This document shows positions 21,941 through 45,570 of a stretch of 64,000 bases of DNA, piece by piece (within the stretch, counting starts at the first letter, position 1; each line of letters opens with the position of its first letter). The DNA lies in contig OY970205.1 in assembly GCA_963708335.1 (NCBI GenBank), forward strand, positions 1,756,676-1,820,675. The letters run 5' to 3'. This DNA comes from an uncultured Acidobacteriaceae bacterium. Lineage in GTDB: Bacteria > Acidobacteriota > Terriglobia > Terriglobales > Acidobacteriaceae. The notes below the pieces were generated by a model. That model ran no database searches, was not told the origin of the DNA, and saw only the letters and a program-made list of their open reading frames with translations. The position numbers were made by a program, and so were the translations under genes.

Positions 21941-21961
21941 CGCCGGCATTTGCGGTCCAGC

Positions 21962-23132: not shown

Positions 23133-23281
23133 GTATATGCAGTTCAACGGTGCGTAATCTGACGTGATCGCAAAAGGGACAGCTGACAGCTCCCAGCGTC
23201 AGCATCCAGCGAAACACCGAGATCGTCAGAACGCACTACAACGTAAACGCGAAAACGGGGCGACTGGAGGCTGCAGTGGCT

Positions 23282-24121: not shown

Positions 24122-24141
24122 ATGATTAAGGGAGCAATGCC

Positions 24142-25881: not shown

Positions 25882-27150
25882 ATGAGCGACCAGCAGGCGC
25901 TCCAAGAGCGCGAGAAACAAATCGCGACTCTGCGCGAGCTAAGGAAAAGGAGGCACGAAGAGCGGGCTGAGCGGCCACCCAGGCTGCTGAGGGGGCTCGA
26001 CGCGCCTGCCGTAATCTCGAAAGAAGAGATCAAGGGCCTTCTCAAGGCGGAATATCAGAATCTTGTGGTGAGTCTTTATCTGCAGCTGGGTCCCGACAAG
26101 GTAGCGCCCATACAAAAAGCTCTGGCAAGGTCCTTTCACTCGCTACAGACTCGCGAACTGGAGCGACGGAAAGACTTGATCGAAGCAATTCCCAAAGCAC
26201 AAAAGGAAATGCTCACGCACGACTTGCAGGAAATTGAAGAACTTCTCGCGCAATATTATGTTCCGCACGATTCCCACACGCTTATCATTTTCAAGTCTGC
26301 AGGGGAACTAAACCGTGTCATTCAACTCCCGGTTCACGCGACCGACAGGTTAACGATTGATCCCGACCCCTACATTGTTCCGCTGGAGATGATTCTGGAG
26401 GAGAATGAGCGCGTCCTCTTCCTCGAAATCGAGAAGCAGGAAAGCCGATTTCAGATTTACCACTTTGGACAGCGCCAGGAACAAGACAGGATTCAGTCCT
26501 TTGTGCCCTCGGATCGCGTGGACGATTCGATTCCTGGTCGCGCGCAGCGGCATCGCCTGACGCACCTCGAGCGACATTTGAAGGCGACTGCCCAACAGGC
26601 ATATCACCTTTATAACGATTCGTCCTTCGACGTCCTGGTTCTAATGGGCGAGGAGCGAGTCATGCACCTGCTGGAAGAGTTCCTTCACGCGACTGTCAAG
26701 GCACAGATTATCGGCCGCATCTATGGCTCACCTGATGCGGATCTTCGCGACCGGAAGAGCCTGATCGAAAACGCGCTTCGCGACCACAAAGCTGATCGGG
26801 AGATCAAAGCGATTGCGGACCTGAAAGAACACAATCCCGCTGAGATTGCACGCAGCCTCGGAAGCGTTGTCAAAGCCTGCAACCTGTTCCTTGTCCGCAA
26901 GTTGATCGTTAGTGTGGGTTTGCATCACCAAGGTTTCATCTGCAAGGAACATCACTATCTTTCCCTTGAGCCCAACGACTGTCCTTTCTGCCGAAAGAAA
27001 CTGGTTTCTGTCGAGAACCTGGTCGACGAGATGATCGAGATAGCGCGGCTTCACGCGGTCGAGGTCACCATTGTCAGCTATCATTGGGAGCTCTTAACCG
27101 AGTATGAAGGGATTGCTGCGGTCGTATACGCTCCGTTAACCGCCACCTGA
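25882..27150 (+). CDS. eRF1/Vms1-fold (baeRF-type) protein with C-terminal zinc-ribbon-like insert
   Basis: 422 aa. The loop SIPGRAQRHRLTHLERHLK looks like the GxxQ-R.R catalytic-loop region of bacterial eRF1-like proteins. C-terminal ICKEHH...CPFCRKKL. The call rests on remembered family features only. Confidence 0.4.
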   Translation: MSDQQALQEREKQIATLRELRKRRHEERAERPPRLLRGLDAPAVISKEEIKGLLKAEYQNLVVSLYLQLGPDKVAPIQKALARSFHSLQTRELERRKDLIEAIPKAQKEMLTHDLQEIEELLAQYYVPHDSHTLIIFKSAGELNRVIQLPVHATDRLTIDPDPYIVPLEMILEENERVLFLEIEKQESRFQIYHFGQRQEQDRIQSFVPSDRVDDSIPGRAQRHRLTHLERHLKATAQQAYHLYNDSSFDVLVLMGEERVMHLLEEFLHATVKAQIIGRIYGSPDADLRDRKSLIENALRDHKADREIKAIADLKEHNPAEIARSLGSVVKACNLFLVRKLIVSVGLHHQGFICKEHHYLSLEPNDCPFCRKKLVSVENLVDEMIEIARLHAVEVTIVSYHWELLTEYEGIAAVVYAPLTAT

Positions 27151-28951: not shown

Positions 28952-29410
28952 TCCCTTTCTCCTTTTGACTTGGGGTTCTACGTTAGAAACGCCTGACCTC
29001 CACGGAACGACGCCGACACGAATCGTATTGAATCGACAACGCCAGAACAATCCCGCAAGCGGATGATTGCCGATGACACCAGGATATGTAGAAATGATTC
29101 CACCGTGAGGTAGATGGAGTCCTACGATGTTAGGAGTAGAGCCAGCGACTGATCTTCCGGGCCCTGTAGATGAGTTCATGTATCCAGAACGGAAATACCT
29201 TGGCTGAGGCCGGGAGGAGGATGATCCCGTTTAGCTGGAGCAATCTTGATCTCGCGACACCACTCCAGTTTAGGTATTCTCGCGTTCTCGTTCGGAACTT
29301 GCTGTCGAAGTCTGATAAGTTTTTTCGGCACAATTGAGGCGAGAAAAAGAGTGGCTTTCTGGCTCCTGAGCGACGCCCAATGAAGCACTTAGATTCTGTC
29401 CTGCTCTTGG

Positions 29411-29456
29411 TTCGGGATCATGGGGTCGGAGAGTTCAAATCCTCTCTCCCCGACCA
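29411..29456 (+). repeat. tRNA-Pro(CGG) 3'-half fragment, direct-repeat copy 2 (att-like)
   Basis: TTCGGGATCATGGGGTCGGAGAGTTCAAATCCTCTCTCCCCGACCA. It differs from copy 1 by two substitutions and one extra A. No 5' half lies upstream. Confidence 0.7.
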
Positions 29457-29472
29457 TTTAATCCCAAGCAGC

Positions 29473-29897
29473 TCATTGAATTAGCGTCGCGCCAATTTGT
29501 CGATTTCCATAATTTGGGTACCGTTTGGGTCCAGTTAGCAAATCTTCGACCTTCTGGACCGCCTCTTTTGCTCCCGCTGGCAGCGAGTGCAAATAGATTC
29601 CTCGTGTTACTTCCGGTGAGGAGAGATTGCACCGGACCGAGCGGAGTGCCTACGTCGCGTTCGAATGGCGTAGAGAGTGCCAGCCGATGGTTCGAGTCGA
29701 TCTTCTTTCTCTTCTAATTGCCGATTCGTTTCCAGAGACACGGATGAACTACTTCTCGGTTTCACAATAAGTTCTGAGCATGTGGTCGCTCTTGCAGTTC
29801 GGTGTGATCGCCTTGCGAGGGCGCTGGCATTCAAGAATTCATGAGCAGGTATGGCAACGTAGGGAATTTGAGCAAAGCGAACGAGAAGTGCCGACAT
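29473..29897 (-). pseudogene. decayed tyrosine recombinase (phage-type integrase) remnant
   Basis: One minus-strand frame reads ...GWHSLRHSNAT*ALRSVRCNLSSPEVTRGIYLHSLPAGAKEAVQKVEDLL. This holds the H.LRH box and the Y-containing C-terminus, interrupted by an in-frame TAG. An upstream segment in another frame (ARATTCSELIVKPRSSSSVSLE) resembles the box I Arg and Lys region. The remnant ends 17 nt from the tRNA fragment. Confidence 0.5.
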
Positions 29898-30181
29898 CCG
29901 TAATTTAATTTCTACGCCGCTTTCGTGATGGAGCCCCCCAGCCTTCTTGCGGAATCCGTCTTCCTCCTTGGCGACACAACGTTTTAGCGCATCAGTCAGT
30001 TATGGCCGGAGCCGATCCGGCGGGATGATGCAACACGGTGACCCCACCTCCGAACGAAGACCCACAGTGCACCAATTTTTGCGTCAGGAGTGTACCTCCG
30101 GTAACTAGTGCGCACGGTCACTGACAGCTAGACTGCCAACAATCTATCAGTGTATTTACGTGCCGGCTTCTCGCGAGGAAC

Positions 30182-32215
30182 GTGGTGCGCGACCAGATAG
30201 AACCTAAAACAGGAAACCGATCCACGCCAACGTATGCCACCAGGGGGCTTCAGAGATTTTGGTTGCGTGCGGCGTATCCTGCTGGGTTTGCCGTTCTCTT
30301 CTTGCTGAGTCTTGCGTCGGTGCCGACCGCCTCGGCCCAGATTTCTCCCGGGCCATTGTCGCGGCCGCACCAGTCTCTCAACGGCGCCACCAACTGCGCC
30401 AGTTGCCACAAATTCGGGGGGCAGGCGGCCCTCAAGTGCCTGGCTTGCCATACCGAGATCGCAACTCGGCTCTCCACCCACAAAGGCTTGCATGCCACTT
30501 ACAACATTCCCGCCGGTTCCAGTCAGGAATGCGCGCGCTGCCACTCTGAGCATAATGGAGAGGACTTCCCGCTGATCAAGTGGGATGTCAAGACCTTCAA
30601 TCACAGGGAGACTGGGTACACCCTCGAAGGCAAGCACACCGGCTTGACGTGTAACAAGTGCCACAATGCTTCCCATATCTCTGCCGCCGACCGTCCTGCC
30701 ATCAAAATCAAGGATCTGAGCCGAACTTATCTCGGCCTCTCGACCGCATGTGGCAGCTGTCACGAGGATGCCCACAAAGGCAGGCTGGGTCCGACCTGTC
30801 AGCAGTGCCACAATTTCGAAGACTGGAAGAAAATCAGCATTGCACAGTTCGATCACTCGAAAACACGCTACCCACTCACGGGGCTGCATGCCCAGGTGCA
30901 ATGCGCCAAGTGCCACACCAACGGACCGGATGGCAAGCCGCAATACACCGGGATTCCATTCAACCAGTGCTCCGACTGCCACAAAGACCCCCATCGCGGC
31001 AGCTTCGCCGCGCAAACCTGCCAGTCTTGCCATAACACGAGCGGATGGAAAAAGGTCTCCGCTCAATCGCTGAATGAGCGCTTTGATCACTCCAAGACAA
31101 AGTTCCCCCTGGAGGGCAAGCATGCCAGCGTCGATTGCACCCAATGCCACGCTAATGGCGATTTCAAGAAGCCCCTCGTGTTCCAGAAGTGCATGGATTG
31201 CCACAAACCCGATCCTCACAGCGGCCAGTTTGCGAAGCGTCCCGACGGCGGAGAATGTGCCTCTTGCCACTCGGTGAACGGCTGGAAGCCCTCCACGTTC
31301 ACCGTGAAAGAGCATGCTCTGAGCACGTATCCATTGCAGGGCGGTCATGCGCGCCTGCAGTGCGCCCAGTGCCACATTCCCAAAGGAAAAGAGACGCTCT
31401 TCAGGATCAAGTTCGAGCGCTGCACCGACTGTCACGCCGACAAACATGCCGGGCAGTTTGCCGCGGCACCATACTTCAATGCGTGCGATCGCTGCCACAA
31501 TCTGGAGGGATACAGGCCATCCACCTTCAGCCTGGCCAAGCACAAGCAGACGCGCTTCGTGCTTACCGGCGGCCACATTGCGGTGCCATGCTCCGATTGC
31601 CACAAGGAATCGACCCAGTTCCAGCCCAAGCCGGCTGTGATCTACCACTGGGGCAATCTAAGTTGCACAAGTTGCCACAACGATCCGCACAAGGGGCAAT
31701 TCAAAGACCGCATGCCGCAAGTGCGGGCGGATGGTATGGCGGCTGGGTGTGAAGCCTGCCACACCACCAAGTCATGGAAGGAACTCTCCGGGTTTGATCA
31801 TTCCAAGACGAAGTTCGCTCTGCTTGGGGCCCACCGCGCCACGGCCTGCATCGACTGTCACAAGCCGCCCAACCTCGAGATGAAGATAACGAACGTTGAT
31901 TTCAAGGCCGCACCGACTCAGTGCGAAGACTGCCATCAGGACATTCACGGAAAGCAGTTCGCCGTAGCGGATATTACGCGATGTGCGGATTGTCACAGCC
32001 CCGCAAAGTGGAAGCCTTCCTTGTTCGATCACGACAAACGGACGACCTTCCCCTTGCGTGGAGCTCACCAGAATGTGCGCTGCACGGAGTGTCACAAGCT
32101 GACCAGGGTGGTTGCCGCCAAGTCCGTCCTGTTCTATAAACCGACGCCCAAGGATTGCGCCGCCTGCCACGGGCCGACGAATCCCCTGCCGAAAGCGAAG
32201 CCATCAGGGTTTTGA
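30182..32215 (+). CDS. secreted multihaem cytochrome c, 23 CxxCH motifs (paired-CxxCH / c3-c7-like modules)
   Basis: 677 aa, GTG start, signal-like FAVLFLLSLASVPTASAQ. I counted 23 CxxCH motifs. Recurrent unit F(D/N)H..T.(Y/F)PL.G.H....C..CH. Confidence 0.9.
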   Translation: MVRDQIEPKTGNRSTPTYATRGLQRFWLRAAYPAGFAVLFLLSLASVPTASAQISPGPLSRPHQSLNGATNCASCHKFGGQAALKCLACHTEIATRLSTHKGLHATYNIPAGSSQECARCHSEHNGEDFPLIKWDVKTFNHRETGYTLEGKHTGLTCNKCHNASHISAADRPAIKIKDLSRTYLGLSTACGSCHEDAHKGRLGPTCQQCHNFEDWKKISIAQFDHSKTRYPLTGLHAQVQCAKCHTNGPDGKPQYTGIPFNQCSDCHKDPHRGSFAAQTCQSCHNTSGWKKVSAQSLNERFDHSKTKFPLEGKHASVDCTQCHANGDFKKPLVFQKCMDCHKPDPHSGQFAKRPDGGECASCHSVNGWKPSTFTVKEHALSTYPLQGGHARLQCAQCHIPKGKETLFRIKFERCTDCHADKHAGQFAAAPYFNACDRCHNLEGYRPSTFSLAKHKQTRFVLTGGHIAVPCSDCHKESTQFQPKPAVIYHWGNLSCTSCHNDPHKGQFKDRMPQVRADGMAAGCEACHTTKSWKELSGFDHSKTKFALLGAHRATACIDCHKPPNLEMKITNVDFKAAPTQCEDCHQDIHGKQFAVADITRCADCHSPAKWKPSLFDHDKRTTFPLRGAHQNVRCTECHKLTRVVAAKSVLFYKPTPKDCAACHGPTNPLPKAKPSGF

Positions 32216-32592
32216 TGGAGGCATCGCTTTTTTCCAATCACTGCCGAATCATTGCGTGCCCTTTCGGAAAACTAAAGTACTAGAACTTCTGGATTTCGAA
32301 ACGCAGTATTCCGAAAACAGGGACAGCACGGCCTTCTGTCAGAGGTTAATTTCTCAACACGTGCTACGAAACGGAAAAAGTGCCCAGGCAACTCGTAGTT
32401 CTTACATTGGCTCTTACCAGGCAATGCGCGCGAGAGAAATCGGACGATGAACTAGTCGACGCTTAAATAGGTACATGGGTAACTTTCGACGGGGCGTCCA
32501 AGTGGTTAGCATCAATGGAAAGGCAATTGCTTTACACGTCGTACTCTTCTACCGTTTTTTTTGTTGTAGTGACCACGTAAGGGGCTGGTCAA

Positions 32593-34548
32593 ATGGGGGC
32601 ATCACGGGGCGCCTACAAATCAATTGTGGTGCTGGCCTTGGCATTTTTCGGAATGCGGGGGCTTGCGCAGGTTTCCGAGGGGACGCATAGTCCTCACGAA
32701 AACCTGAACATTCCCTGTCAGAATTGCCACACGGCGAACGCGTGGAAGCCGATTCGCGCGGTTCCTGAATTCGATCACAATCAAACGAAGTATCCGTTGC
32801 GCGGCATGCACCAAGCGGTGACGTGCGTCCAATGCCACGTCAAGCCCGTGTTCACGAACGTCGGACAGCGCTGTCAGGACTGCCACGCCGATATTCACCG
32901 GCGTCAGCTCGGGGCGAGTTGCGAACAATGCCACACCGTTCGGGGCTGGCAAGTCACGGTGCAGGCTATCCAACAGCATAACAATCGGTTTCCGCTGACG
33001 GGAGCGCACGCCGCAGTGGACTGCGACTCCTGTCATAAGGGCGCAGCCACCAGCCAGTTTCAATCGATGTCGACGGCGTGTTACTCCTGCCACGCGGCAG
33101 ATTTCAAGGGGACCTCCAACCCGAGCCACGTCTCGGGCGGGTTCTCCACGACGTGCAGCCTCTGCCACGGGACGGACACCTGGCTGAACGCGACTTTCGA
33201 CCATTCGTCGGTTGGATTTCCTCTGAGCGGGGGCCATGCCGTACCGCCGCGCATGTGCGCCGATTGCCACATCAACAATAATTACAACTTGTCCAGCACG
33301 GCTTGCGTGAGCTGCCACCTCAAGGACTATCAGGGAACCACCAATCCGAATCACGTGGCCGCTAGTTTTTCGCAGACTTGCAATCAATGCCACAACACCA
33401 CATCGTGGTCGAACGCGTCGTTTAACCACAACGCGACCAACTTTCCGCTGACGGGCATGCACACGGTGCCTCCGCGGCAGTGCATCGATTGCCACGTCAA
33501 CAATAATTACAACCTCACGAGCACAGCGTGCGTCACCTGCCATTTGAAGGATTACCAGGGAACGACGAATCCCAATCACGTGACGTCGAACTTCCCGCAA
33601 GGCTGCGATCAGTGCCACAACACGAGCTCATGGCTGAATGCGACTTTTAACCACAACAGCACCGGACTTCCGCTAACCGGCATGCACACGGTGCCGCCAC
33701 GGCAATGCACCGATTGCCACGTCAACAATAATTACAACCTCACGAGCACGGCGTGCGTCACATGCCATTTGAAGGACTATCAGGGAACGAACAATCCCAG
33801 CCACGTGGCGTCGAACTTCCCGCAGACCTGCGATCAGTGCCACAACACGAGTTCATGGCTGAATGCGACCTTCAATCACAACAGCACCGGATTTCCTCTG
33901 ACCGGCTCGCACACGGTGCCACCCCGGCAGTGCACGGATTGCCACGTCAACAACAACTACAACCTGACCAGCACAGCGTGCGTGACGTGCCACCAAAATG
34001 ATTACAACGGCACGACCAACCCCGCGCACGCGGCCGCGGGATTCCCCACGACTTGCGAATTGTGCCACGACACCACGGTCTGGACCGACTCGACCTTCAA
34101 CCACAACAACACCGCCTTCCCCCTGACCGGTTCACATTTGGTGCCTCCGCGGGTTTGCGCTGACTGTCACGTCAACAACAACTACACGACGCTGCCTACG
34201 ACTTGCATCGGCTGCCACCAGACCGACTACAACAACACCACCAACCCGGGCCACTCTGCGCAACCGCAGTTCTTCCCCACGACCTGCCAGAATTGCCACA
34301 ACACAACCGCATGGACGGGCGCGACCTTTAACCATACGCAGTACACGCAATTTCCAACCAGCCATGGCAACGCGGGTGGCGTGTGTTCGACGTGTCATAT
34401 CAACTCCAACAACTACGCGATTTTCCAGTGCACGGGCTGCCATGGCGGCAATAACGCAAACAACTTCCATCACGACAACGTTTCTGGATATGTCTACAAC
34501 AGCATCAACTGCTACCAATGCCATCAGAGCGGTCATGGCGGGGGTTAA
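32593..34548 (+). CDS. secreted multihaem cytochrome c, 25 CxxCH motifs, internally repetitive
   Basis: 651 aa, signal peptide IVVLALAFFGMRGLAQV. I counted 25 CxxCH motifs. Built from about six trihaem modules of 75-78 aa. Asn/Thr-rich. Confidence 0.9.
   Translation: MGASRGAYKSIVVLALAFFGMRGLAQVSEGTHSPHENLNIPCQNCHTANAWKPIRAVPEFDHNQTKYPLRGMHQAVTCVQCHVKPVFTNVGQRCQDCHADIHRRQLGASCEQCHTVRGWQVTVQAIQQHNNRFPLTGAHAAVDCDSCHKGAATSQFQSMSTACYSCHAADFKGTSNPSHVSGGFSTTCSLCHGTDTWLNATFDHSSVGFPLSGGHAVPPRMCADCHINNNYNLSSTACVSCHLKDYQGTTNPNHVAASFSQTCNQCHNTTSWSNASFNHNATNFPLTGMHTVPPRQCIDCHVNNNYNLTSTACVTCHLKDYQGTTNPNHVTSNFPQGCDQCHNTSSWLNATFNHNSTGLPLTGMHTVPPRQCTDCHVNNNYNLTSTACVTCHLKDYQGTNNPSHVASNFPQTCDQCHNTSSWLNATFNHNSTGFPLTGSHTVPPRQCTDCHVNNNYNLTSTACVTCHQNDYNGTTNPAHAAAGFPTTCELCHDTTVWTDSTFNHNNTAFPLTGSHLVPPRVCADCHVNNNYTTLPTTCIGCHQTDYNNTTNPGHSAQPQFFPTTCQNCHNTTAWTGATFNHTQYTQFPTSHGNAGGVCSTCHINSNNYAIFQCTGCHGGNNANNFHHDNVSGYVYNSINCYQCHQSGHGGG
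33256..34155 (+). repeat. in-frame tandem repeat, 4 x 225 bp (trihaem module)
   Basis: The first Cys codon of each module falls at 33256, 33481, 33706 and 33931 (and 34156), exactly 225 bp apart. Units 2 and 3 are roughly nine-tenths identical at the DNA level by eye. Diverged units flank the array (33022-33255, 34156-~34390). Confidence 0.85.
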
Positions 34549-34613
34549 AGTCGGGCCTTCCAGAGACGCGGGGGCGACAGCCGGTCAGGTAGACCAGCGA
34601 GAGTCAACAACAC

Positions 34614-37124
34614 ATGAAGGCAGTGCACAAACATCTTGGAATCGCGACGCTGTTGGTGTCGTGTGCCGCGGCACAGGCGGGCATCACGACATTACAGAGC
34701 GTAAATACAGTGCGCGATGGCGAGAACTTGCGCGTCGAGATTACTCTCAGCGCTCCAACCAAGCCGGCACATGACACTGCCATTCATCCCGACCGCATCC
34801 TGCTTGATCTTCCTGACACCGCCAACGATACCGGAACCAAGAACGTCGCGGTCAATGCGAACGGAGTGCGCCGCGTACGAATCGGCCGGCACAGCGACAC
34901 TCCTCTCGTCACGCGAGTGGTGATTGACCTGGATAGTCCTCATCCTTACACCGTCACCGCGGATGGGAAGCGCATTCTCGTGACTATCGCGCCCGCAGAA
35001 AATTCGCGAGCCGCACGGGGAGCGCCCGTAGCCGCCACAACGGGCGCCCTCATTGGGGTCTTCCGCAGGCGGCACGATTCCAAGCCGGTCAGCGATACAG
35101 CTACAGATATTCCACAAACCCCTGCTCCGCCGCAAGCGGTGGCTGGACCTGCATTCGAACCGCCATCGGAAACGCCGTCGACAGCGGCGGCCCCGACCCC
35201 GCCTGCTCCTGCCCTTCCCACCTTCGCGGCTGGGGCTTCGCCGGAAGTTGCCACGAAGTCGGATGCTTCCACGATCGAGATTGGGAGCAGTGCGAACTCA
35301 GGTGTAACCGCAACCGTGCCAAAGCCGGCCTCAACGTCCGCGTCGAACTCCGTAGCCACTGAGGCGGCCGCCGAGCCAGGTAGCCCCAAGAGTGAGCCGG
35401 CCGCGTCTGTGTTGTCGCTGGCGCCGTCAGCCGTGGCAACCGCATCACCCGCCCCAACGGAAACGTCGACAGTGATCGGCCGCGTCGACGATCCGAACTT
35501 GCGCACGGTCTTCAAGGTGAAATATCTGGCCGACGGCGTAGCGTATCTCGATGGCGGGAAGGCGCAGGGCCTGGCCGAAGGCATGAAGTTAGAGATCGTC
35601 GACACGAACGTACCGGCGAAGCAGGGAGACAGCGCAAACGCTGGCGACCCGCGCGTGGTCGCGGAACTGGAAGTAACCGCGGTTGCGGAGATGTCAGCTG
35701 TCACTGACATTCACGCACCCAAGCGCCAAGTCAGAGTCGGCGACCTTGCCTACCTTTCCAGCAATGATGCGGAAGCCATGGTTCAGCAACGGACGCTCAG
35801 CGCGACCCGTCAATACCCGGCGGTTATCTCCTTTACCGAAAGCGATGAACTCGATGAGGAAGCGCGTCAGGAAGTCCCGCGACCTCCGCTTCCCTCGGTC
35901 AATCGTGCGCGCGGGCGCATTGGCTTCGACACCATCGAAACCTTCAGCCACGGAACCAGCAATGTGACCAGCTCTGACGTGGGCATGGTCTTTCGCGGCG
36001 ACATCACGCGGATCGGCGGCACTTACTGGAATCTCAGCGGCTACTGGCGCGGTGAACTCACCAAAGCATCGGCGGCGTCCCAGCAGACACTGCAGAACCT
36101 GCTGAACCGCACCTATCACCTGAACCTGACGTACGACAATCCCAACTCCACGCTGGTCGCAGGATTTGGCCGTCTGTATTTGCCCTGGGCTCCGAGCCTC
36201 GACACGATTGATGGCGGGTATTTTGGCACGAGACTTTCGAAGGGTGTTGTCCTGGGAATCTTCGGGGGTTCTACGCCCGATCCTTCCTCGTGGGATTACA
36301 GTCCCAACCGAGTGATTGGGGGATCGTTCGTCAACTTCGAAGGCGGAGAGTTCAACGGATTCCATTACAGCAGCACCAGCGGAGTCGGCGTCAGCATGGT
36401 GAACTGGCAGGTCGACCGCCCATTCATCTTTTTTGAGGATTCTTTGTCCTATAAGCGCACCATCGCCCTCTACGAATCAGCGCAACTCGACAATCCGAAG
36501 GGAAATTCCGCTACTCCTTCGCCAGGCTCCGGACTCGGCCGCAACTTCCTGACCTTGCGCATCGACCCGCATCCGCGCGTGGAACTCGACTTCAACTACA
36601 ACTATTTCCGCGATATTCCTACCTTTGATCCAACTCTTATCGGAACTGGGCTGCTCGACAAATACCTGTTCCAGGGCTTCAGTGCCGGAGGACGGCTGGA
36701 CGTGTGGAAGCAGCTTTGGCTGTCCACGAACATCGGCCAAAGCAACGGAACCGGCGACTCCAAAACCAGCCTGAATCAAATGTATGGCATCACCTTTGGC
36801 CGCATTCCAAAATTGAACCTGCGCGCCGACGTCCACTACGCGAAGTTCAACAGTTCATTCGGCGACGGTTCCTATGAATCGTTCGCACTCTCCCGGCAAG
36901 TGAGCGACCGGCTTCGTGTTGAGGTCTTGCTGGGGCAGCAGAAGTTTGCTTCCGCCATCACCACGAATACGCGCAGCCGCTTCGTCACCGGCACGGTCGA
37001 GACTACACTCGGGCCCCACTACTACCTGCAAACAAATTTCACCACGAATCGCGGCGACATGAGCTACGACCAGATGATGTTCTCGATTGGCTACCGGTTC
37101 GATTCGAAGAGGAGAGGAGAATGA
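34614..37124 (+). CDS. outer-membrane protein: signal peptide + AMIN domain + Pro/Ala/Ser-rich linker + large C-terminal beta-barrel-like domain
   Basis: 836 aa. AMIN-like N-terminus (ITTLQSVNTVRDGENLRVEITLS...RILLDLPDT...VRRVRIGRH...TRVVIDLD...ILVTIAP). Low-complexity region at about residues 150-300. The C-terminal half has alternating aromatic/Gly/Asn pattern ending ...MMFSIGYRF plus 8 aa. Confidence 0.6.
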   Translation: MKAVHKHLGIATLLVSCAAAQAGITTLQSVNTVRDGENLRVEITLSAPTKPAHDTAIHPDRILLDLPDTANDTGTKNVAVNANGVRRVRIGRHSDTPLVTRVVIDLDSPHPYTVTADGKRILVTIAPAENSRAARGAPVAATTGALIGVFRRRHDSKPVSDTATDIPQTPAPPQAVAGPAFEPPSETPSTAAAPTPPAPALPTFAAGASPEVATKSDASTIEIGSSANSGVTATVPKPASTSASNSVATEAAAEPGSPKSEPAASVLSLAPSAVATASPAPTETSTVIGRVDDPNLRTVFKVKYLADGVAYLDGGKAQGLAEGMKLEIVDTNVPAKQGDSANAGDPRVVAELEVTAVAEMSAVTDIHAPKRQVRVGDLAYLSSNDAEAMVQQRTLSATRQYPAVISFTESDELDEEARQEVPRPPLPSVNRARGRIGFDTIETFSHGTSNVTSSDVGMVFRGDITRIGGTYWNLSGYWRGELTKASAASQQTLQNLLNRTYHLNLTYDNPNSTLVAGFGRLYLPWAPSLDTIDGGYFGTRLSKGVVLGIFGGSTPDPSSWDYSPNRVIGGSFVNFEGGEFNGFHYSSTSGVGVSMVNWQVDRPFIFFEDSLSYKRTIALYESAQLDNPKGNSATPSPGSGLGRNFLTLRIDPHPRVELDFNYNYFRDIPTFDPTLIGTGLLDKYLFQGFSAGGRLDVWKQLWLSTNIGQSNGTGDSKTSLNQMYGITFGRIPKLNLRADVHYAKFNSSFGDGSYESFALSRQVSDRLRVEVLLGQQKFASAITTNTRSRFVTGTVETTLGPHYYLQTNFTTNRGDMSYDQMMFSIGYRFDSKRRGE

Positions 37125-37948
37125 TCCATTCAGTTCAACCCCTCCGGAAAGGAATGCGCCTGGCACTGGTTCTTCTCGCCTGTGCTACATCTGCCCTGTG
37201 CTTAGCCGGCGCCAGTTCCGCGTCTCCAGAAGAACAGAAGTTGAACAGCCTCTTGGGACGCACGGCCGAGCAGACGGCAGTATTCCTCGATCAATTCGCA
37301 GACGTAAAGTGCACCGAGCAAGTACGCCAGGAGAAACTGGGCAAGGACAGCAAAGTGGAACTTAAGGAAGACTCCACTTATGACTACCTAGTCATCCTGA
37401 CGAATGCCGGGGGCGAACTGAATCTCTCGGAATCACGGATCCCCGTTCGTGAGGCGAAGCGGGACCGGCGCAATACTCCTATGCTGCTAAGCAACGGCTT
37501 CGCAACCCTGTTCCTTATTTTCCATCCTTATTATTCGGCTGCCTTCAAGTTCACCCTCGCCGGCGAGGAAGTCATTGGAGGCCTGACTCTGGAAAAAGTC
37601 CGCTTCGAGCACATCACAGGCATGAAATCGCCGGCGGCGCTTGCCCTGCGCGGAAGGGAGTATCCTCTTGAACTTTCAGGGATGGCGTGGGTCGACGCGC
37701 AGACTGGTTCAATCGCCAAAATCGAGGCCGGCATCGCAGACTCGCTCGCCGATGTCGGGATGAAATCGCTGGACTCCGAGATCGATTTTGCGCCGGTATC
37801 GTTCGCTGGGTCGAAGACAGCCTACTGGTTTCCGATCCAGGCGCGCGTAGAGGTCGAAACTCCCAGGCAGCACTGGCGTAACTTGCACCAATTTACCGCA
37901 TACAAGAGATTCTCAGTAACTACGGAAGAGCAGGTCACCACGAAATGA
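37121..37948 (+). CDS. secreted hypothetical protein
   Basis: The start overlaps the upstream stop (ATGA). Signal peptide MRLALVLLACATSALCLAGA. No domain recognised. Confidence 0.55.
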   Translation: MIHSVQPLRKGMRLALVLLACATSALCLAGASSASPEEQKLNSLLGRTAEQTAVFLDQFADVKCTEQVRQEKLGKDSKVELKEDSTYDYLVILTNAGGELNLSESRIPVREAKRDRRNTPMLLSNGFATLFLIFHPYYSAAFKFTLAGEEVIGGLTLEKVRFEHITGMKSPAALALRGREYPLELSGMAWVDAQTGSIAKIEAGIADSLADVGMKSLDSEIDFAPVSFAGSKTAYWFPIQARVEVETPRQHWRNLHQFTAYKRFSVTTEEQVTTK

Positions 37949-38898
37949 GCGCGAACGCCACCGCCACCGCACGTATAGTCGCCGGCGCCAAAACCGGCCC
38001 GGACTCCGAGCGCGGGCATAAGCTCCGCCTCCGCGCCTTGTACATGCTTGCTTTTGCCACGAACCTCGCGATCTTTATCTACGGCTTCGACTACTACAAA
38101 CTGTCGGCCATCGATCGTCCCTTTTCACCGAAGCATCACATGCTCCGCCCCAGCGGCCCGATTGGGCTGTATCTGGGATTCATGGGCGTAGCTTTGTTCG
38201 CTGGCATCTTCCTCTATCCGCTCCGCAAGCACTGGGCGTGGCTGGGGACGAAAGGCAGCACCCGGCATTGGCTCGATATTCATGTGCTGATGGGGCTGAC
38301 CGCGCCGTTCATCATTGCGTTTCACTCCACCCTGAAGTTCAAAGGCATTGCGGGAATGGCTTTCTGGATCATGTTCGCGGTGTCAGCCAGCGGAGTTGTA
38401 GGACGCTATCTCTATGCGCAAATTCCGCGCAAGATGAGCACCGCCGAACTGTCAATGCGGGAAGTCCAGGAGTTGCAAGAAACATTGTCGCAGCAGCTTG
38501 CGGCACAAAACCTTCTTCCTGCGGCCGACTTGCGCGCATTGCTGCGGATGCCGGATGCGAAGATGGTGACGCGCCTTCCCATCGTCGTCGCTTTGGTCTA
38601 TATGATGATTCTCGATGTGGTCCGCGTTTTCCGCGTCGCGCGGTTGCGTCGTCATGCACTCAGTTTCGGCGGGTACATGCAAACCTTGGCGGGATTCCTG
38701 CCTACACGCAATCGTGAGATCGAGAAAGCCATTCATGCGGCGGCGGAAGAAGCCGCGCTTTCCAAGAGAATCCTGTTCCTCTCGCGCTCGCAGAAAGTTT
38801 TTCACCTCTGGCACGTCGTGCATAAGCCGTTCAGCTACGCCTTCGCCGTGCTGGCGCTATTGCACATCGCACTGCAATTTGTTCTGGGATATTTCTGA
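37945..38898 (+). CDS. integral membrane protein with two His-x13-His helix pairs (candidate dihaem b-type electron carrier)
   Basis: The start overlaps the upstream stop (ATGA). About 6 TM. HVLMGLTAPFIIAFH and HKPFSYAFAVLALLH each place two His 14 residues apart inside predicted helices. Confidence 0.5.
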   Translation: MSANATATARIVAGAKTGPDSERGHKLRLRALYMLAFATNLAIFIYGFDYYKLSAIDRPFSPKHHMLRPSGPIGLYLGFMGVALFAGIFLYPLRKHWAWLGTKGSTRHWLDIHVLMGLTAPFIIAFHSTLKFKGIAGMAFWIMFAVSASGVVGRYLYAQIPRKMSTAELSMREVQELQETLSQQLAAQNLLPAADLRALLRMPDAKMVTRLPIVVALVYMMILDVVRVFRVARLRRHALSFGGYMQTLAGFLPTRNREIEKAIHAAAEEAALSKRILFLSRSQKVFHLWHVVHKPFSYAFAVLALLHIALQFVLGYF

Positions 38899-38907
38899 TT
38901 CGACTCC

Positions 38908-40299
38908 ATGGAAACCCTTATCACTTACGGCGTCGGCGGCCTCATTTGCCTCTTCTTTTTAGTCGGCTATCTGAAGCGTCTGAAGAAGGCCGAAGCCCGC
39001 GCCCGCGAGGCCGCCGAAAAAGGCAAGCTCTTTTCCGAAGGACCGAAGGCCCAGCATCCTCATATCGATTCGAACTATTGCATCGGCTGCGGAACCTGCA
39101 CTAGCGTCTGCCCCGAAGGTGACGTACTGGCGATGATTGCGGGCAAGGCGGTCATTGTGAATGGCCACAAGTGCATCGGTCATGGCCTGTGCGCGGATGC
39201 GTGCCCCGTCGGCGCGATCACGATGGTGATGGCCAGCCCGAGCATGGCCGCCGACATGCCCCATCTCACGCCGGAGTACGAGACCACCATCCCGAACCTT
39301 TTTATTGTCGGCGAACTCGGCGGGCTGGCTCTGATCAAGAACGCCGTGAATCAGGGACGCGACTGCGTTGACACGATTGCCGCGCGCCTCAAGACAAGAT
39401 CTGCCCAGGCCATCCCTGGCGTTTACGACGTCTTAATCGTTGGCGCGGGGCCGGCCGGCATCAGCGCGTCGCTGCGCGCCATAGAAAGCAAACTCAATTA
39501 CATCACGCTCGAGCGCGACGAAGTTGGCGGCACGGTCGCCAAGTATCCGCGACAAAAACTCGTGATGACGAGCCCCGTCGAATTTCCCATGTACGGCAAG
39601 TTCAAGAAGTTGCAGCTTTCCAAAGAACACCTGCTGGCCTTCTGGGACATGATTCTGAACCGCGCTGATTTCAATGTGTCGACCGGCGAGAAGGTTGAGG
39701 ACATCACGAAGGACGACAAGGGCATCTTCACGGTCATCTCCGCGACCAATCAGTATCGTGCGCGGTCGGTCATTCTCGGGCTTGGCCGGGCCGGAGAGCC
39801 ACGCAAGCTCGGCGTTAAAGGCGAGCAACTGCCCAAAGTGATGTACCGCTTGATCGAGGCAGATCACTACATCAACAAAAAGATTCTTGTCGTCGGGGGC
39901 GGCGACAGCGCGGTCGAAGCCGCTCTCGGACTCGCCAACCAGACCGGAAACCAGGTGACGCTCTCGTACCGCAGCGAGCGCTTTAGCCGCATCAAGGAAC
40001 GGAATGCCAATCGCGTCGAAGAGTGCATGCGCTCAGGAAAAGTCCGTGTGTTGTTTAATTCCAATCCGGTTGAATTCAAACCCGAATCAGTATCGATCGA
40101 CGTGAACGGCGCCAGACAAGAAATTCCCAATGATTTTGTCTGGATCTTCGCGGGAGGAAATCCACCCACAGCCTTCCTTAAAAAGATCGGCATAGGTTTC
40201 GGAGCTCGCGACCTGACCCTCGAGGCCAGCAGAGAAGCGAAGCAGGCCAATGAAGACCGCAAGCAATTCGCCCAGGCACATGCTGCGCCGGCTCGCTGA
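38908..40299 (+). CDS. membrane-anchored 2x[4Fe-4S] ferredoxin-domain + FAD/NAD(P)-binding oxidoreductase
   Basis: N-terminal TM helix followed by Lys/Arg-rich sequence. CIGCGTCTSVCP and CIGHGLCADACP. DVLIVGAGPAGISA (FAD). ILVVGGGDSAVEAA (NAD(P)). Confidence 0.75.
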   Translation: METLITYGVGGLICLFFLVGYLKRLKKAEARAREAAEKGKLFSEGPKAQHPHIDSNYCIGCGTCTSVCPEGDVLAMIAGKAVIVNGHKCIGHGLCADACPVGAITMVMASPSMAADMPHLTPEYETTIPNLFIVGELGGLALIKNAVNQGRDCVDTIAARLKTRSAQAIPGVYDVLIVGAGPAGISASLRAIESKLNYITLERDEVGGTVAKYPRQKLVMTSPVEFPMYGKFKKLQLSKEHLLAFWDMILNRADFNVSTGEKVEDITKDDKGIFTVISATNQYRARSVILGLGRAGEPRKLGVKGEQLPKVMYRLIEADHYINKKILVVGGGDSAVEAALGLANQTGNQVTLSYRSERFSRIKERNANRVEECMRSGKVRVLFNSNPVEFKPESVSIDVNGARQEIPNDFVWIFAGGNPPTAFLKKIGIGFGARDLTLEASREAKQANEDRKQFAQAHAAPAR

Positions 40300-40754
40300 C
40301 TCCTGCCTCGTTCGGCCACACCGTCGGACTGGCCCTTCGCAGACAAGTCAATGCCTCTGTTCGACAGGTCACTCTCGCACGACTAGGTTCCTCGCAGGCC
40401 GACGTCGTTCCACGTTCGAAGCTCCAGCTCCCCGCGCTTTTCGTCGCTCAGAAACTTTGAGAGTGCAAAGGTGACCGCGAGGACGATCGGTCCGATGAAC
40501 GGTGAAGAATGAATGCTCGCAACCTCGGTCTACACTGCGGAGTTTCGGCATTCGAGATCACCTTATCCAAAAAGGCGTGCATCATGCTGACTGCGACTCC
40601 GCCGACTTTCCCAAGGACGCGGCGAGGATTTCTCAAAGGCATACGCTTGCACGCTGCGCACTCTTAGAAAACGGATCGCAGAATGGGCTAGACGATGCGG
40701 AGCGATGTCTCCCGTACAACCCCAGAAGGACGAAGAAGGCAGAGCGAAACAAGA

Positions 40755-41501
40755 CTAGTTCTCCGCATAGACCGGCCCGGCCTGGCGAGAGGGTGGATCG
40801 GCGACAGCGCGGATATAGGAAATCAGCGCCTGTACATCAGACTTGCTGAGCGTGTTTCCCCAGGCCGGCATGAGGGCCGATTTGTTGAGGGCCGGACCTC
40901 CATAGCTGATGATCGCGGTGAGGTCGGCGTCGCTGATTTTGTTCAGCGTATCTCCTTCGGTGAAGGGGTGAGGCTTGACCTCGAGGTTGTCATAGTTGGA
41001 GACGCGCTCGACCGTAGACTCGGGATTGTGGCAGCGTTCGCAGTATTGATCGTTGAGTCGGCGTCCGAGGGTTTGCTGATAGCCGAGTGCGATCTCTTCT
41101 ATCTTTAATTCCACCTTTCTGTGGGACTTGTCGATCGTCGAGGCGACGAGTTGGTAACGGCCCGCCATGCCTCCGAGAGATACATTGGTCGTGACTTGGC
41201 CGCTGGAGTCGGTAAGCCCGCTGGCGGGATCGAACGTTACCCCGGGGATCGCTGCGAATTCGACTAGAGCTCCGGATACGGCAGCTCCCTGCTCGTCGTT
41301 TACCTGGACTACGACTGGTTGCGGCAACCAGGCGCCGGTCTGCGCGAACTGTTTTCCGCCGCTGGATTCGATGATCGCGGCGCCGAAAGCCGTGGGCTTG
41401 GGCAGAGGTGCGGACTCGGTCTTACGCGAACAGGAAATAGCCAGCGATGTTGCCAGCACCGCGACAACGAAGGTACCGATTGTATGGAAGTGGCGCGTCA
41501 T
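40755..41501 (-). CDS. lipoprotein with Ig-like domain and C-terminal monohaem cytochrome c domain
   Basis: Lipobox-like LAISC. Single CERCH with a distal Met region (ALMPAWG). The start overlaps the upstream stop (ATGA). Confidence 0.7.
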   Translation of the reverse strand: MTRHFHTIGTFVVAVLATSLAISCSRKTESAPLPKPTAFGAAIIESSGGKQFAQTGAWLPQPVVVQVNDEQGAAVSGALVEFAAIPGVTFDPASGLTDSSGQVTTNVSLGGMAGRYQLVASTIDKSHRKVELKIEEIALGYQQTLGRRLNDQYCERCHNPESTVERVSNYDNLEVKPHPFTEGDTLNKISDADLTAIISYGGPALNKSALMPAWGNTLSKSDVQALISYIRAVADPPSRQAGPVYAEN

Positions 41502-43543
41502 TTCTTGGCGACCTCCGGTTTGGCTCCGCCTTTTTGCGAGATCAGAAATGCGGTCAGAGCGCGCGCATCGTCGTCAGTCATGGCGCGGTTCGGCTCCACG
41601 GTACCCGGGCGCAGAGCCTGCGGATTTTTCATCCACTGGTAGATCCAGGCGGCGGTAAGGCGCGAGCCAACCTGCGTCAGCGTGGGGCCGATGTAGCCCT
41701 TGTCTGTCTTGGTGTCGAGGATGTGGCATCCCTGGCAGGAATACTTGCCATAGAACAGTTGCTTCCCGAGTTCCACCTCGCCTTGGGAGTAGCCGCTCAA
41801 CGGCATGGAGTCGCGATCAACTGACGGATTCTGATACACGGTCATGATGTAGTCGGTGAGTTCGTTGATTTCGGAATCGGTCAGGTTGAAGCGTGGCATG
41901 CGGCGAATCAGCGCCGGACGCAGCGTTCCTGGATTCTTGAAAAACTGCACCAGCCACTCGCGCTGGACGGAACTGCCTTCCCAGGTCAGGTCCGGCGCCA
42001 TGTCGCCACCGCGCCCGTTGATGCGATGGCAACTGAAGCAGGCTAAGTCAGACATCAGTTTCCCGGCTTTGCCGGCAGGCTGGTAATCCGACTCGGGGAC
42101 TGCGGCAACAGCCAGGGATGCTGGCAAAGTAGTCGAACGCTCGTTCAGAGCCAGCAACGCTGTGGTCAGTGCATCGATCTGCGTCGGCGTGAAGCTGTAT
42201 TGCGGCATTCGCAGGTTCGGCGAAAATGCCCGTGGTTCTTTGATTTTGCCCGCAAGGTAATCGGGAAGGGTGTGCGGCATCCCGGGCAGAAAAATGAGCT
42301 GGGTAATCGACTTGCTGCCAATGCGGCTGAGTTCCGGAGCGAAGTTTTCCGGCTTCTTGATTCCGGCGATTTCGTGGCAGGAGGCGCAGCCATAGTCCGA
42401 TACGAGGCGCTTGCCGTGCGCGATCTGCTCGGGAGTAGCCGCATCCAAGTGAACGTTGGCAAGGAGATCGGAATCCGCCTTCGCGAGAAGGAATCCGGAT
42501 AAGGTCGCGACCTGCGGATCGTTGAAGCGATAGTGCGGCATCGCCGTGCCGGGATCGTATACGCGCGGATTTTTCAGCCAGCCTTGCAGCCACTCCGGCT
42601 TCACTTTGCTGCCAATGCGCGTCAGTTCCGGACCAACATCACCACCAACCACGTTCCCCGCCGCATTCTGCACAGCGTGGCACGAGGCGCAAAAGGATTC
42701 ACCATAAAGGCTGGGGCCGGCAGTAGGATCAGCGGCGGGCTTGCCGGAGAGACTGGCAGAGTCTCCCGGCACGGCCGTGCTATTGGCGACCAGGAAAGCG
42801 GAGATGTCGCGCGCATCGTCGTCACTCAACTTGAAATTCGGCATCGTGGCGCTGACCGCATAGGCTCGCGGATCTTTCAGCCACGCGTAAATCCACTCTC
42901 GCGTGGTCTTGTCGGCAATGTGCGAAAGAGAGGGCGCATCGTCACTGGCTTTGAGCGTGCTGCCATCGGGCAGTTTCACCGTATGACAGTTGACACAACC
43001 GTAGCGAGAGAGCAGGTTGCGTCCCTGATTGAGAACAGGAGTTCCTGGCAACGGACCGCGGTGGCATTCCCCACAGGAAGACTCGATGTATTTGGCCGGA
43101 AGAATGGGCTGCTCCCAGGCGAGCGTACTGTTATGCGCTTCAGATACGGTAGTCGCAGCGCCCTGCCCGCGATGACACACGGTGCAGCCGAACTGGTCGA
43201 GCTTGTGCGGAATCACGGGATGAGTGCGGAAGGGTTGGGTAGAAACATCGGTAAGACTGGGTTCCTTCAGTCCGACGTGGCAACTGGTGCAGCGGTCCAC
43301 GACTCCAAGTTCTGGAAGCCAGATCTGCTGAATCCCTGGCTTGAAGTGCCTCTGCAGGGTGTTGGCCTCGCTGCGGTTGCGAATCGTCTTCAGATACCCG
43401 TGCTGATAGTGGCGCCACTCGCTGAAAAAGTTCTTCGCGGGAGCGATCGCCAGCGATGCGAGAAAAATGACGCTGATCACACCGAAGGCGCGCACGCTGT
43501 CGCCGAATAACTTATGCCATATCGATGTGAATTTCTGTCTCAT
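41498..43543 (-). CDS. membrane-anchored octahaem cytochrome c (4 N-terminal haems + 4 class-I-like domains)
   Basis: TM helix FGVISVIFLASLAIAP. 8 CxxCH (CTSCH, CTVCH, CGECH, CVNCH, CASCH x2, CFSCH, CQGCH). ATG 43543 is preferred over GTG 43606, which would overlap the upstream gene by 44 nt. Confidence 0.8.
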   Translation of the reverse strand: MRQKFTSIWHKLFGDSVRAFGVISVIFLASLAIAPAKNFFSEWRHYQHGYLKTIRNRSEANTLQRHFKPGIQQIWLPELGVVDRCTSCHVGLKEPSLTDVSTQPFRTHPVIPHKLDQFGCTVCHRGQGAATTVSEAHNSTLAWEQPILPAKYIESSCGECHRGPLPGTPVLNQGRNLLSRYGCVNCHTVKLPDGSTLKASDDAPSLSHIADKTTREWIYAWLKDPRAYAVSATMPNFKLSDDDARDISAFLVANSTAVPGDSASLSGKPAADPTAGPSLYGESFCASCHAVQNAAGNVVGGDVGPELTRIGSKVKPEWLQGWLKNPRVYDPGTAMPHYRFNDPQVATLSGFLLAKADSDLLANVHLDAATPEQIAHGKRLVSDYGCASCHEIAGIKKPENFAPELSRIGSKSITQLIFLPGMPHTLPDYLAGKIKEPRAFSPNLRMPQYSFTPTQIDALTTALLALNERSTTLPASLAVAAVPESDYQPAGKAGKLMSDLACFSCHRINGRGGDMAPDLTWEGSSVQREWLVQFFKNPGTLRPALIRRMPRFNLTDSEINELTDYIMTVYQNPSVDRDSMPLSGYSQGEVELGKQLFYGKYSCQGCHILDTKTDKGYIGPTLTQVGSRLTAAWIYQWMKNPQALRPGTVEPNRAMTDDDARALTAFLISQKGGAKPEVAKK

Positions 43544-43562
43544 GTCTGCTGCATCCTTGTCC

Positions 43563-45058: not shown

Positions 45059-45060
45059 GC

Positions 45061-45558: not shown

Positions 45559-45570
45559 ATTGCCTCGCGC

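Follow-up and report, generated by a model that had tools for sequence, protein, structure and literature searches.

The closest described counterparts of the gene cluster reported here are porin-cytochrome clusters of the PCC3 type. The cluster lies in a stretch of 64,000 nucleotides (hereafter the window) from an uncultured Acidobacteriaceae bacterium (GenBank assembly GCA_963708335.1, contig OY970205.1, positions 1,756,676 to 1,820,675, forward strand). The names carried by near-identical proteins point to a soil acidobacterium of the class Terriglobia, of the Candidatus Sulfotelmatobacter type. PCC3 was defined in Alpha-, Beta- and Gammaproteobacteria and comprises a porin, an extracellular multihaem cytochrome (MHC), a second one in the periplasm, and an inner-membrane protein (IMP) of ~300 aa (He et al. 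2017, Front Microbiol, PMC5566968). The published medians are 34 haems for the extracellular MHC, whose repeats are rich in small residues, and 21 haems for the periplasmic MHC, with a range of 22–39 aa per haem (PMC5566968). The IMP of PCC3 and PCC4 clusters has five transmembrane (TM) helices, an SGxxG motif on TM4 and a Wx3Hx13H motif on both TM3 and TM5. It has been likened to cytochrome b and to the FRD domain of NOX/FRE proteins, and a quinone-active role was proposed (PMC5566968). Fe(II) oxidisers were the first organisms in which PCC3 was found, and it was modelled as an inward conduit (PMC5566968). Later work on PCC3 places the periplasmic subunit at 21–27 haems and the extracellular subunit at 10–35. 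The PCC3 clusters of Sideroxydans lithotrophicus ES-1 (e.g. Slit_1446-1449) have the order IMP, periplasmic cytochrome, extracellular cytochrome, porin; four genes and no flavoprotein are described.

The window cluster consists of six genes on the + strand. Two open reading frames (ORFs), identified as cytochrome genes from their CxxCH counts, encode a secreted 23-haem cytochrome c of 677 aa (cytA, 30182..32215) and a secreted 25-haem cytochrome c of 651 aa (cytB, 32593..34548). They are followed by the gene for an 836-aa outer-membrane protein with an AMIN domain and a predicted beta-barrel (OMP, 34614..37124; Pfam, AlphaFold2 (AF2) and Foldseek) and by that for a 275-aa protein predicted from its signal peptide to be exported (sec, 37121..37948). 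The last two genes encode a 317-aa inner-membrane protein with five predicted TM helices, a candidate dihaem cytochrome b (mem, 37945..38898; AF2 and conserved motifs), and a 463-aa membrane-anchored, putatively cytoplasmic Fe-S flavoprotein (FeS, 38908..40299; Pfam and PDB sequence matches). A first-pass annotation, made from the letters of the window and its ORFs, had described this set as a candidate trans-envelope electron conduit. All six ORFs, and the 23 and 25 CxxCH motifs counted in the translations, are as it reported; overall its observations were confirmed and its interpretation was supported in part. With moderate confidence, we read the six genes as one PCC3-type envelope-spanning electron-transfer machine with a previously unrecognised cytoplasmic NAD(P)H input module.

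Relation to described systems

The window cluster agrees with PCC3 on every descriptive point, the match being one of descriptive features and motifs. The mem protein fits the IMP signature exactly in size, five TM helices, SGxxG and both Wx3Hx13H motifs. The cytA product has a signal peptide, few residues per haem and 23 haems, within the published 21–27. The 25-haem cytB product contains seven low-complexity repeats of 75 aa, and Thr, Asn and Ser together account for 31% of its residues. At 26–29 aa per haem both cytochromes are inside the published range, and an outer-membrane barrel gene is part of the cluster. Outside the Acidobacteriota the order of the corresponding genes is mem-cytA-cytB-barrel, which is the ES-1 order.

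The window-type clusters differ from PCC3 in their occurrence (Acidobacteriota, Gemmatimonadota, Marinimicrobia and Bacteroidota) and in the predicted barrel, which has ~20 strands compared with up to 42 in published porins. The acidobacterial version also adds an AMIN domain and linker to the barrel, and the 275-aa exported protein. What is new relative to PCC3 is the NAD(P)H-linked Fe-S flavoprotein partner, which has not previously been described: none is reported for PCC3, and we found no mention of such a partner of these clusters in the literature. The first-pass annotation had considered the locus an undescribed way to wire cytoplasmic reductant to extracellular acceptors. That holds for the flavoprotein partner but not for the architecture, which was published for PCC3 together with the Hx13H pairs and the resemblance to FRD and NOX (PMC5566968).

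The MtrCAB system of Shewanella and OmaB-OmbB-OmcB of Geobacter likewise encode a periplasmic MHC, a barrel and an outer cytochrome together. However, there is no significant sequence relation: the DmsE/MtrA and OmcA/MtrC models of NCBIfam score 28–37 bits against cut-offs of 192–209 (36.9 against 192.2 for the DmsE/MtrA decahaem family). The window cytochromes, with 23 and 25 haems, are of the c7-repeat type and not decahaem, cytB is not a lipoprotein, and the feed at the inner membrane is not CymA/ImcH/CbcL-like. The route predicted for the window cluster, from NAD(P)H by way of flavin to two b haems with bis-His ligation, stacked across the membrane on two helices with Hx13H pairs, is also that of the NOX, FRE, STEAP and MsrQ proteins. 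They differ in having six TM helices where mem has five, and in a fused FNR-fold dehydrogenase where the flavin module here is a separate polypeptide of thioredoxin reductase (TrxR) fold with a ferredoxin domain. The proposed acceptor here would be a chain of multihaem cytochromes in place of O2, Fe3+ or MsrP.

The Tmc and Hmc complexes of sulfate reducers move electrons across the membrane independently of quinones, by way of a cytoplasmic Fe-S protein, a cytochrome b in the membrane and a multihaem cytochrome c in the periplasm, and the window cluster has candidates for the same three kinds of component. However, the cytoplasmic subunit of Tmc/Hmc is HdrD-like (with CCG domains), there is no outer-membrane component, and electrons flow inward from periplasmic H2 or formate; the HmcA model scores 17–29 bits on window proteins against a cut-off of 400. 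Two further published sets were compared and set aside as different clusters. These are the extracellular electron transfer (EET) clusters EET1 (porin-NHL-cytochrome) and EET2 (MtrC-DmsE-porin) of peat Acidobacteriota, with 8–13-haem proteins (Fiorito et al. 2026, preprint), and the porin-MHC clusters of Verrucomicrobia, with 8-haem cytochromes (He et al. 2017, mSphere).

Gene order and conservation

Direct reading of the sequence bears out the junctions given in the first-pass annotation. ATGA stop/start overlaps join OMP to sec (37121–37124) and sec to mem (37945–37948), and a spacer of 9 nt, TTCGACTCC, separates mem from FeS between 38898 and 38908. The cytA and cytB genes are separated by a 378-bp non-coding gap (window 32216–32592), unlike their counterparts in locus L088, which overlap. 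A promoter and terminator scan of the cluster gave sites no commoner than in shuffled sequence, and an Rfam search of 29000–41000 found no RNA family.

Relatives were collected in a species-level scan with one genome per species, from which the best 80 loci, all with Acidobacteriota-type clusters and nearly all labelled Acidobacteriota, were used, and in a search of metagenome contigs for which a narrow mem alignment served as query and which contributed 80 further loci. In the species-level loci, ~80 Acidobacteriota species genomes, tblastn with the proteins of the window places the genes in the order cytA-cytB-OMP-sec-mem-FeS on the same strand essentially wherever there is enough flanking sequence. 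This collinearity of six genes persists down to 40–65% identity, in one Bryobacterales genome and two other divergent genomes. The genes flanking the cluster in relatives are unrelated and variable. A search for further conserved downstream partner genes reached at most 17 of 60 loci, for a SpoU methylase and a Ser/Thr kinase, and the cluster carries no iron-uptake genes.

Three distant mem homologues (26–35% identity) were found on one Gemmatimonadetes contig, one Marinimicrobia contig and one contig of 71 kb. The gene order at all three loci is mem, Fe-S flavoprotein, 17–20-haem cytochrome, 22–36-haem cytochrome and an unannotated protein of 513–548 aa. In BLASTP comparisons the FeS orthologues at these loci are 45–48% identical to the window protein (45–53% across cross-phylum clusters). 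The cytA orthologues are 38–39% identical (37–39% across L088-L091) and share the N-terminus QISPGKL...H..LEG, and the cytB orthologues are 33–41% identical (33–44% across other phyla). Residues 301–829 of OMP align with the 513–548-aa proteins at 22–24% identity (E=1e-31 to 1e-10), or 22–27% when further loci are included.

The same five-gene core, without sec, occurs in a cultured member of the Bacteroidota, Emticicia oligotrophica DSM 17448, on the ~100-kb plasmid pEMTOL02 (L091, NC_018749.1, 78197–89995). The order there is ccsA, mem, a gene annotated "NAD(P)-binding domain-containing protein", two annotated as "cytochrome c3 family" proteins, and one for a 538-aa hypothetical protein. The ccsA gene, directly before the core, is a fused cytochrome c biogenesis gene. 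This arrangement suggests a self-contained, horizontally mobile module.

Each of the 21 loci with at least 7 kb of sequence downstream of mem, four cross-phylum loci among them, has the full set of cytA, cytB, barrel and flavoprotein genes. The position of the flavoprotein gene is less constant than its presence. Of the 66 loci long enough to be judged, 48 have it directly after mem; it lies upstream of mem in L096 and L107 and after the barrel gene in L113, L125, L139 and L162. Because membership is retained despite this shuffling among three positions, we consider the genes to be functionally linked. Within the Acidobacteria the flavoprotein is, at 77–88% identity, the second most conserved protein of the cluster after mem. 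The claim that the two cytochrome genes belong with the four-gene operon thus stands, as the six genes are collinear in ~80 acidobacterial species genomes and five of them co-occur in at least four other lineages. On these comparisons it is well supported that the six genes, built on the five-gene core, are one real conserved unit. The mem family is large, with more than 3,900 clusters at 90% identity among 8,000 candidates scored, and 2,178 clusters at 50% identity (E<=1e-3).

Individual loci show further variation. Some acidobacterial metagenome-assembled genomes carry the cluster in two or three copies (L013 and L034 in CAWGKF; L018, L035 and L039 in CAVPNR), and the region upstream of cytB in L034 yielded nothing closer to cytA than a match of 29% identity. 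In the Marinimicrobia locus (L089) mem and the flavoprotein gene are separated by a gene for a monohaem Haem_bd (PF14376) protein of 163 aa (9867–10358), and there is an additional 8-haem cytochrome of 271 aa; L088 has a gene for a 183-aa TPR protein after the flavoprotein gene (11278–11829). The only other contig examined that has an identical mem, L001 (ENA contig_111093), shows numerous apparent frameshifts, its cytochrome and OMP genes being broken into many short ORFs. These frameshifts look like the product of an error-prone long-read assembly rather than of pseudogenisation.

The Fe-S flavoprotein

At its N-terminus the FeS protein has a TM helix and then a stretch rich in Lys and Arg; it has no Tat or Sec export signal. 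It matches Pyr_redox_3 (E=2.6e-44) and the Fer4 families (~1e-10) of Pfam and contains the dinucleotide-binding motifs GxGxxG and GGGDSA. All orthologues are membrane-anchored. The protein therefore corresponds to the membrane-anchored FAD/NAD(P) protein with an Fe-S domain seen in the first reading of the window, and it is a candidate for a cytoplasm-facing, NAD(P)H-linked enzyme with predicted cofactor binding.

The ferredoxin motifs (residues 56–100) are CxxCxxCxxxCP and CxxHxxCxxxCP, or seven cysteines and one histidine. The histidine-containing form of the second motif is found in 139 of 141 orthologues (L002–L171), so that the strict 2x[4Fe-4S] domain assigned at first does not hold. In addition, 50 non-acidobacterial orthologues have lost the second cysteine of the first motif, which reads Cxx[S/T]xxCxxxCP. 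One or both clusters may be of the 3Fe type, or 4Fe with a histidine ligand; the motifs point to a chemistry that is conserved but non-canonical.

The best PDB match of FeS is to YpdA/Bdr (1.5e-26), and the next matches are to thioredoxin reductases and TrxR-type ferredoxin-NADP reductases. While residues 173–438 align end to end with the YpdA/Bdr and TrxR-type reductases, enzymes with two dinucleotide domains (7a7b at 1.5e-26; 3ab1, 3lzw and 2zbw at 1e-11 to 1e-15), FeS adds the membrane anchor and the fused Cys7-His ferredoxin, and it has no CxxC outside the ferredoxin domain. Its scores are below every curated family cut-off (164.9 bits against 339.9 for YpdA, 81 against 343 for TrxR). Lacking a redox-active CxxC as well, FeS was rejected as a YpdA or a thioredoxin reductase; only the fold class is common.

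The inner-membrane protein

The AF2 model of mem (pLDDT 90.9) has TM helices at residues 19–51, 72–93, 106–127, 134–158 and 279–314, and a cytoplasmic helical insert of ~120 residues at ~160–278. The conserved motifs are W109-x3-H113-x13-H127 on TM3, S149-G150-x-x-G153 on TM4 and W289-x3-H293-x13-H307 on TM5. The two intramembrane His-x13-His pairs noticed in the first reading (H113-x13-H127 and H293-x13-H307) are invariant in 42 relatives with 26–66% identity. Invariant positions in the 42 sequences include H113, H127, H290, H293, H307, S149, G150, G153 and W289, and W109 is conserved in at least 90%. We place H113 and H293 on the cytoplasmic side and H127 and H307 on the periplasmic side because of the positive-inside distribution, the short loop at 128–133 and a natural gene fusion (see below). 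On this model mem is a candidate transmembrane dihaem b protein with predicted haem binding.

Similarity of mem to known families is weak. Among the 42 sequences, 24 match DUF4405, ten match Ferric_reduct (best E=2.6e-4) and eight match cytochrome b561 (Ni_hydr_CYTB); the window protein itself has a sub-threshold DUF4405 match only and none to PF01794. A Foldseek search of the PDB with the whole of mem returned nothing below E=0.5 (best E=0.53), and a mem profile found only spurious coiled-coil matches among PDB sequences. No quinone-site motif was identified in mem.

The cytochromes and a natural fusion

The cytA and cytB products have 29.4 and 26.0 aa per haem, respectively, and SPI-type signal peptides; their translations contain no CxxxCH or CxxxxCH variants. 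The cytA product matches Cytochrome_C7 (4.7e-30), Cytochrom_c3_2 and MtrC/MtrF domain II/IV in Pfam and is a candidate periplasm-spanning wire of c7/c3-type modules. The GTG annotated as its start may lie too far upstream, and QISPG, following an ASA cleavage site, is probably the N-terminus of the mature protein. The repeats of cytB are trihaem, with a motif spacing of 34/16/25, and give c7 and nanowire_3heme matches in Pfam and NCBIfam. This protein is a candidate outer or extracellular wire. No conserved lipobox was found in either cytochrome among the cluster orthologues compared.

A natural fusion connects cytA with mem. The gene for the 502-aa protein P0172 (L082-L085, 10001–11509) was seen on 8 contigs, which belong to at least 4 separate sample assemblies. 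A first part of ~250 residues has 46% identity to the N-terminus of cytA, and a second part has 37% identity to mem residues 71–316 (TM2 to TM5). The junction replaces TM1 of mem and leads into TM2 at its periplasmic start, which agrees with the predicted topology. From this fusion we infer that the N-terminus of cytA is the partner of the periplasmic face of mem. A gene for a 446-aa multihaem cytochrome precedes the fusion gene in L082-L085.

The outer-membrane and exported proteins

The predicted layout of the OMP protein is a signal peptide, an AMIN domain (31–124; Pfam E=1.4e-13), a Pro/Ala/Ser/Thr linker of ~170 aa, a small conserved periplasmic domain (~297–360) and a barrel (~470–829), ending in ...GYRF and a 7-residue tail. 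AF2 predicts ~20 antiparallel strands in residues 470–829, the C-terminal ~330 residues, with an overall pLDDT of 48 (70–83 in the AMIN domain and 55–78 in the strands). In Foldseek searches the model resembles generic outer-membrane barrels (OmpC/F, PapC and LptD) with a probability of 1.0 and TM-scores of at most 0.48. An aromatic C-terminal beta-signal (...YRF or W) ends the protein in 18 of 22 diverse orthologues, and the remainder carry a short basic tail, as the window protein does. These results agree with the first description of OMP as an AMIN protein with a barrel-like domain.

The type of barrel was examined further. A conventional secretin such as PilQ or GspD, which would have spoken against a conduit, was rejected: only the AMIN domain resembles PilQ (residues 7–142), there is no Secretin match in Pfam and the C-terminus is a barrel with a beta-signal. 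The sole PDB sequence matches of OMP are to the AMIN domains of PilQ. A relation to MtrB/PioB/OmbB-type barrels, which the first-pass annotation had raised, was not found in Pfam, profile or PDB searches; there is no MtrB_PioB match at E<=0.01 for the protein or at E<=1 for its core, the core profile finds no MtrB, and MtrB is absent from the top 50 Foldseek matches. Pfam detected no barrel family and the core profile no PDB barrel. The core profile did give a weak FlgT_C-like match to the small N-terminal domain in 4 of 10 members, which is not significant (best E=1e-3). Distant OMP orthologues have no AMIN domain or linker, the alignment starting at OMP residue 301, and this extension appears from the comparison to be a feature of the acidobacterial version.

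The sec gene, whose start overlaps the OMP stop, encodes the secreted protein already noted in the four-gene operon, with an SPI-type signal peptide; it has no Pfam or NCBIfam family. It is found in all acidobacterial loci and in L142 and is absent from the clusters of other phyla, by which distribution sec is a putative accessory restricted to Acidobacteriota-type clusters. Lipoprotein status was rejected for both sec and OMP, as the lipobox-like LLAC and LVSC of the window proteins are not conserved in relatives (sec lipobox in 2 of 79).

Proposed function and alternatives

We propose that NAD(P)H would be oxidised at the FAD of the membrane-anchored flavoprotein. Its two Fe-S clusters would then relay single electrons, with the exit probably at the His-ligated or 3Fe cluster, to the cytoplasm-side b haem of mem (H113/H293) and on to the periplasm-side b haem (H127/H307). 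The N-terminal end of cytA would dock on the periplasmic face of mem and cytA would carry the electrons across the periplasm, while cytB would extend the chain through or beyond the ~20-strand barrel, which in Acidobacteriota the AMIN domain would tether to peptidoglycan. Likely acceptors would be extracellular Fe(III) or Mn(IV) minerals or humic and particulate organic quinones. Net flow would be outward, so that the system would be an NAD(P)H-reoxidising electron outlet and not a proton-pumping respiratory chain. We infer this direction because transfer from about -320 mV is downhill and helped by the membrane potential, while flow in the opposite direction would be uphill on both counts, with no coupling pump encoded. 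The protein contacts, the localisation of cytB and the identity of the acceptor are similarly deduced from the features described above. The NOX-like module from NAD(P)H through FAD and Fe-S to b haem, put forward in the first-pass annotation, fits the domains, the topology, the invariant His pairs and the retention of the flavoprotein. The reverse direction, which it had also allowed, is energetically disfavoured on bioenergetic grounds. The stronger proposal, that this is quinone-independent EET in which NAD(P)H is wired directly to the outside via FeS, mem and two cytochromes of more than 20 haems in a barrel, is one that we advance only tentatively.

Several points weigh against the proposed machine. 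Each step and function is predicted from genes only. Export of electrons from NAD(P)H would conserve no energy and would cost membrane potential, so that its pay-off, for example redox balancing under O2 limitation, is hypothetical. Some carriers, such as Emticicia, are described as aerobes. The model of OMP is of low confidence (pLDDT 48), and a cytochrome within the predicted 20-strand barrel is hypothetical. The cytB product has no lipobox, and no export route to the cell surface was identified. In the window, the 378-bp gap between cytA and cytB is without above-chance promoter or terminator signal. In 18 of the 66 loci the flavoprotein gene is not immediately after mem, and some of these contigs are too short to judge its presence. 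There is no flavoprotein or barrel gene within 10 kb of the P0172 fusion loci, and therefore the mem domain can also work with another partner and may, as was proposed for the PCC3 IMP, also trade electrons with quinones. Lastly, the PCC3 clusters of ES-1 are not Fe(II)-induced, and published PCC3 clusters are without demonstrated function.

The main rival is a quinone-linked PCC3 conduit, in which mem, as a quinol dehydrogenase or quinone reductase, would be the true connection to metabolism and the flavoprotein an auxiliary, regulatory or repair partner that, for example, keeps the haems or cytochromes reduced. A quinone link was the published proposal for the same IMP signature (PMC5566968). 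It is kept alive by the cytochrome::mem fusion, which occurs without a neighbouring flavoprotein, and by the ES-1 PCC3, described as four genes with no flavoprotein. To our knowledge, all characterised Gram-negative EET systems draw on the quinone pool. Against an auxiliary role, no complete cluster (of 21), whatever its phylum and gene order, lacks the flavoprotein, which is 77–88% identical within the Acidobacteria and is membrane-anchored in all orthologues. In mem itself no quinone-site motif was identified, and the ~120-residue cytoplasmic insert would have no role in a pure quinol oxidase. We consider the quinone-linked conduit rather unlikely.

A second possibility is a NOX-like surface outlet that reduces O2 or other oxidants, or an assimilatory reductase that solubilises Fe(III), with the haems serving as an electron buffer and no respiratory EET. 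The logic of NOX, FRE and STEAP, from NAD(P)H through flavin to two b haems, is the same, and the mem family has weak Ferric_reduct matches. Some of the lineages come from oxic habitats, and one copy is on a plasmid of Emticicia, an aerobe. However, 48 c-type haems and a dedicated barrel would be costly compared with the two haems of NOX/FRE, the architecture matches that of porin-cytochrome conduits and the cluster contains no iron-uptake genes, all of which make such an outlet improbable.

Electron uptake, with Fe(II) outside the cell, reduced humics or a partner cell as donor and a path via cytB, cytA and mem to NAD(P)+ for biosynthesis, recalls the first finding of PCC3 in Fe(II) oxidisers and its inward model (PMC5566968), and multihaem chains are reversible in principle, but we judge it very improbable, since electrons would have to move against the membrane potential and climb to about -320 mV with no coupling ion pump encoded, the carriers found are from mostly heterotrophic lineages and the ES-1 PCC3 is not Fe(II)-induced.

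If the cluster is indeed an NAD(P)H-fed conduit, it would be a different bioenergetic design, a potential-assisted outlet that regenerates NAD(P)+ without a respiratory chain. Every well-studied diderm EET pathway that we know of takes its electrons from the quinone pool. The proposed machine would also reinterpret the functionally uncharacterised PCC3 clusters, for which it provides a testable hypothesis after their having been without a function since 2017. The module is abundant and is found in Terriglobia, which are dominant in acidic soils and peat, where organic matter and humics, when they are reduced, are thought to suppress methane formation. The cultured, plasmid-borne copy in E. oligotrophica DSM 17448 offers an experimental handle.

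Neighbouring genes

A second redox operon on the - strand (window 40755–49695) is convergent to the cluster, and this geometry is real. The operon encodes a 461-aa monohaem protein (48310–49695), a cupredoxin (47654–48235), a 688-aa GltD-like NAD(P)H Fe-S flavoprotein (45571–47637), a Rieske protein (45061–45558), a split cytochrome b (44270–45058 and 43563–44270), a 702-aa cytochrome with 8 CxxCH motifs and FixO-like/class-I domains (41498–43606) and a monohaem protein with a Big_1 domain (40755–41501). It is unusual for a Rieske/cytochrome b complex to come with an NAD(P)-linked flavoprotein of its own, and the set recalls the Rieske/cytochrome b complexes of anammox bacteria. By tblastn, none of the eight proteins of this operon, nor the DUF3300 protein encoded upstream, is encoded beside the cluster in 79 relatives; they are found only in L001, which is of the same strain. 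The electron-transfer island of ~20 kb that the first-pass annotation had drawn from the two operons is therefore not upheld, and their proximity is a coincidence of this genome.

Elsewhere in the window, a histidine kinase with an ethylene-receptor-like ETR1_N N-terminus (E=6.4e-42) is encoded in the region 20303–25308, along with a second PAS kinase, two response regulators of the LuxR type and a stand-alone receiver. The 422-aa product of the gene at 25882–27150 contains a release-factor-like domain of the bacterial archaeo-eukaryotic kind (baeRF family 10, E=6.5e-14).

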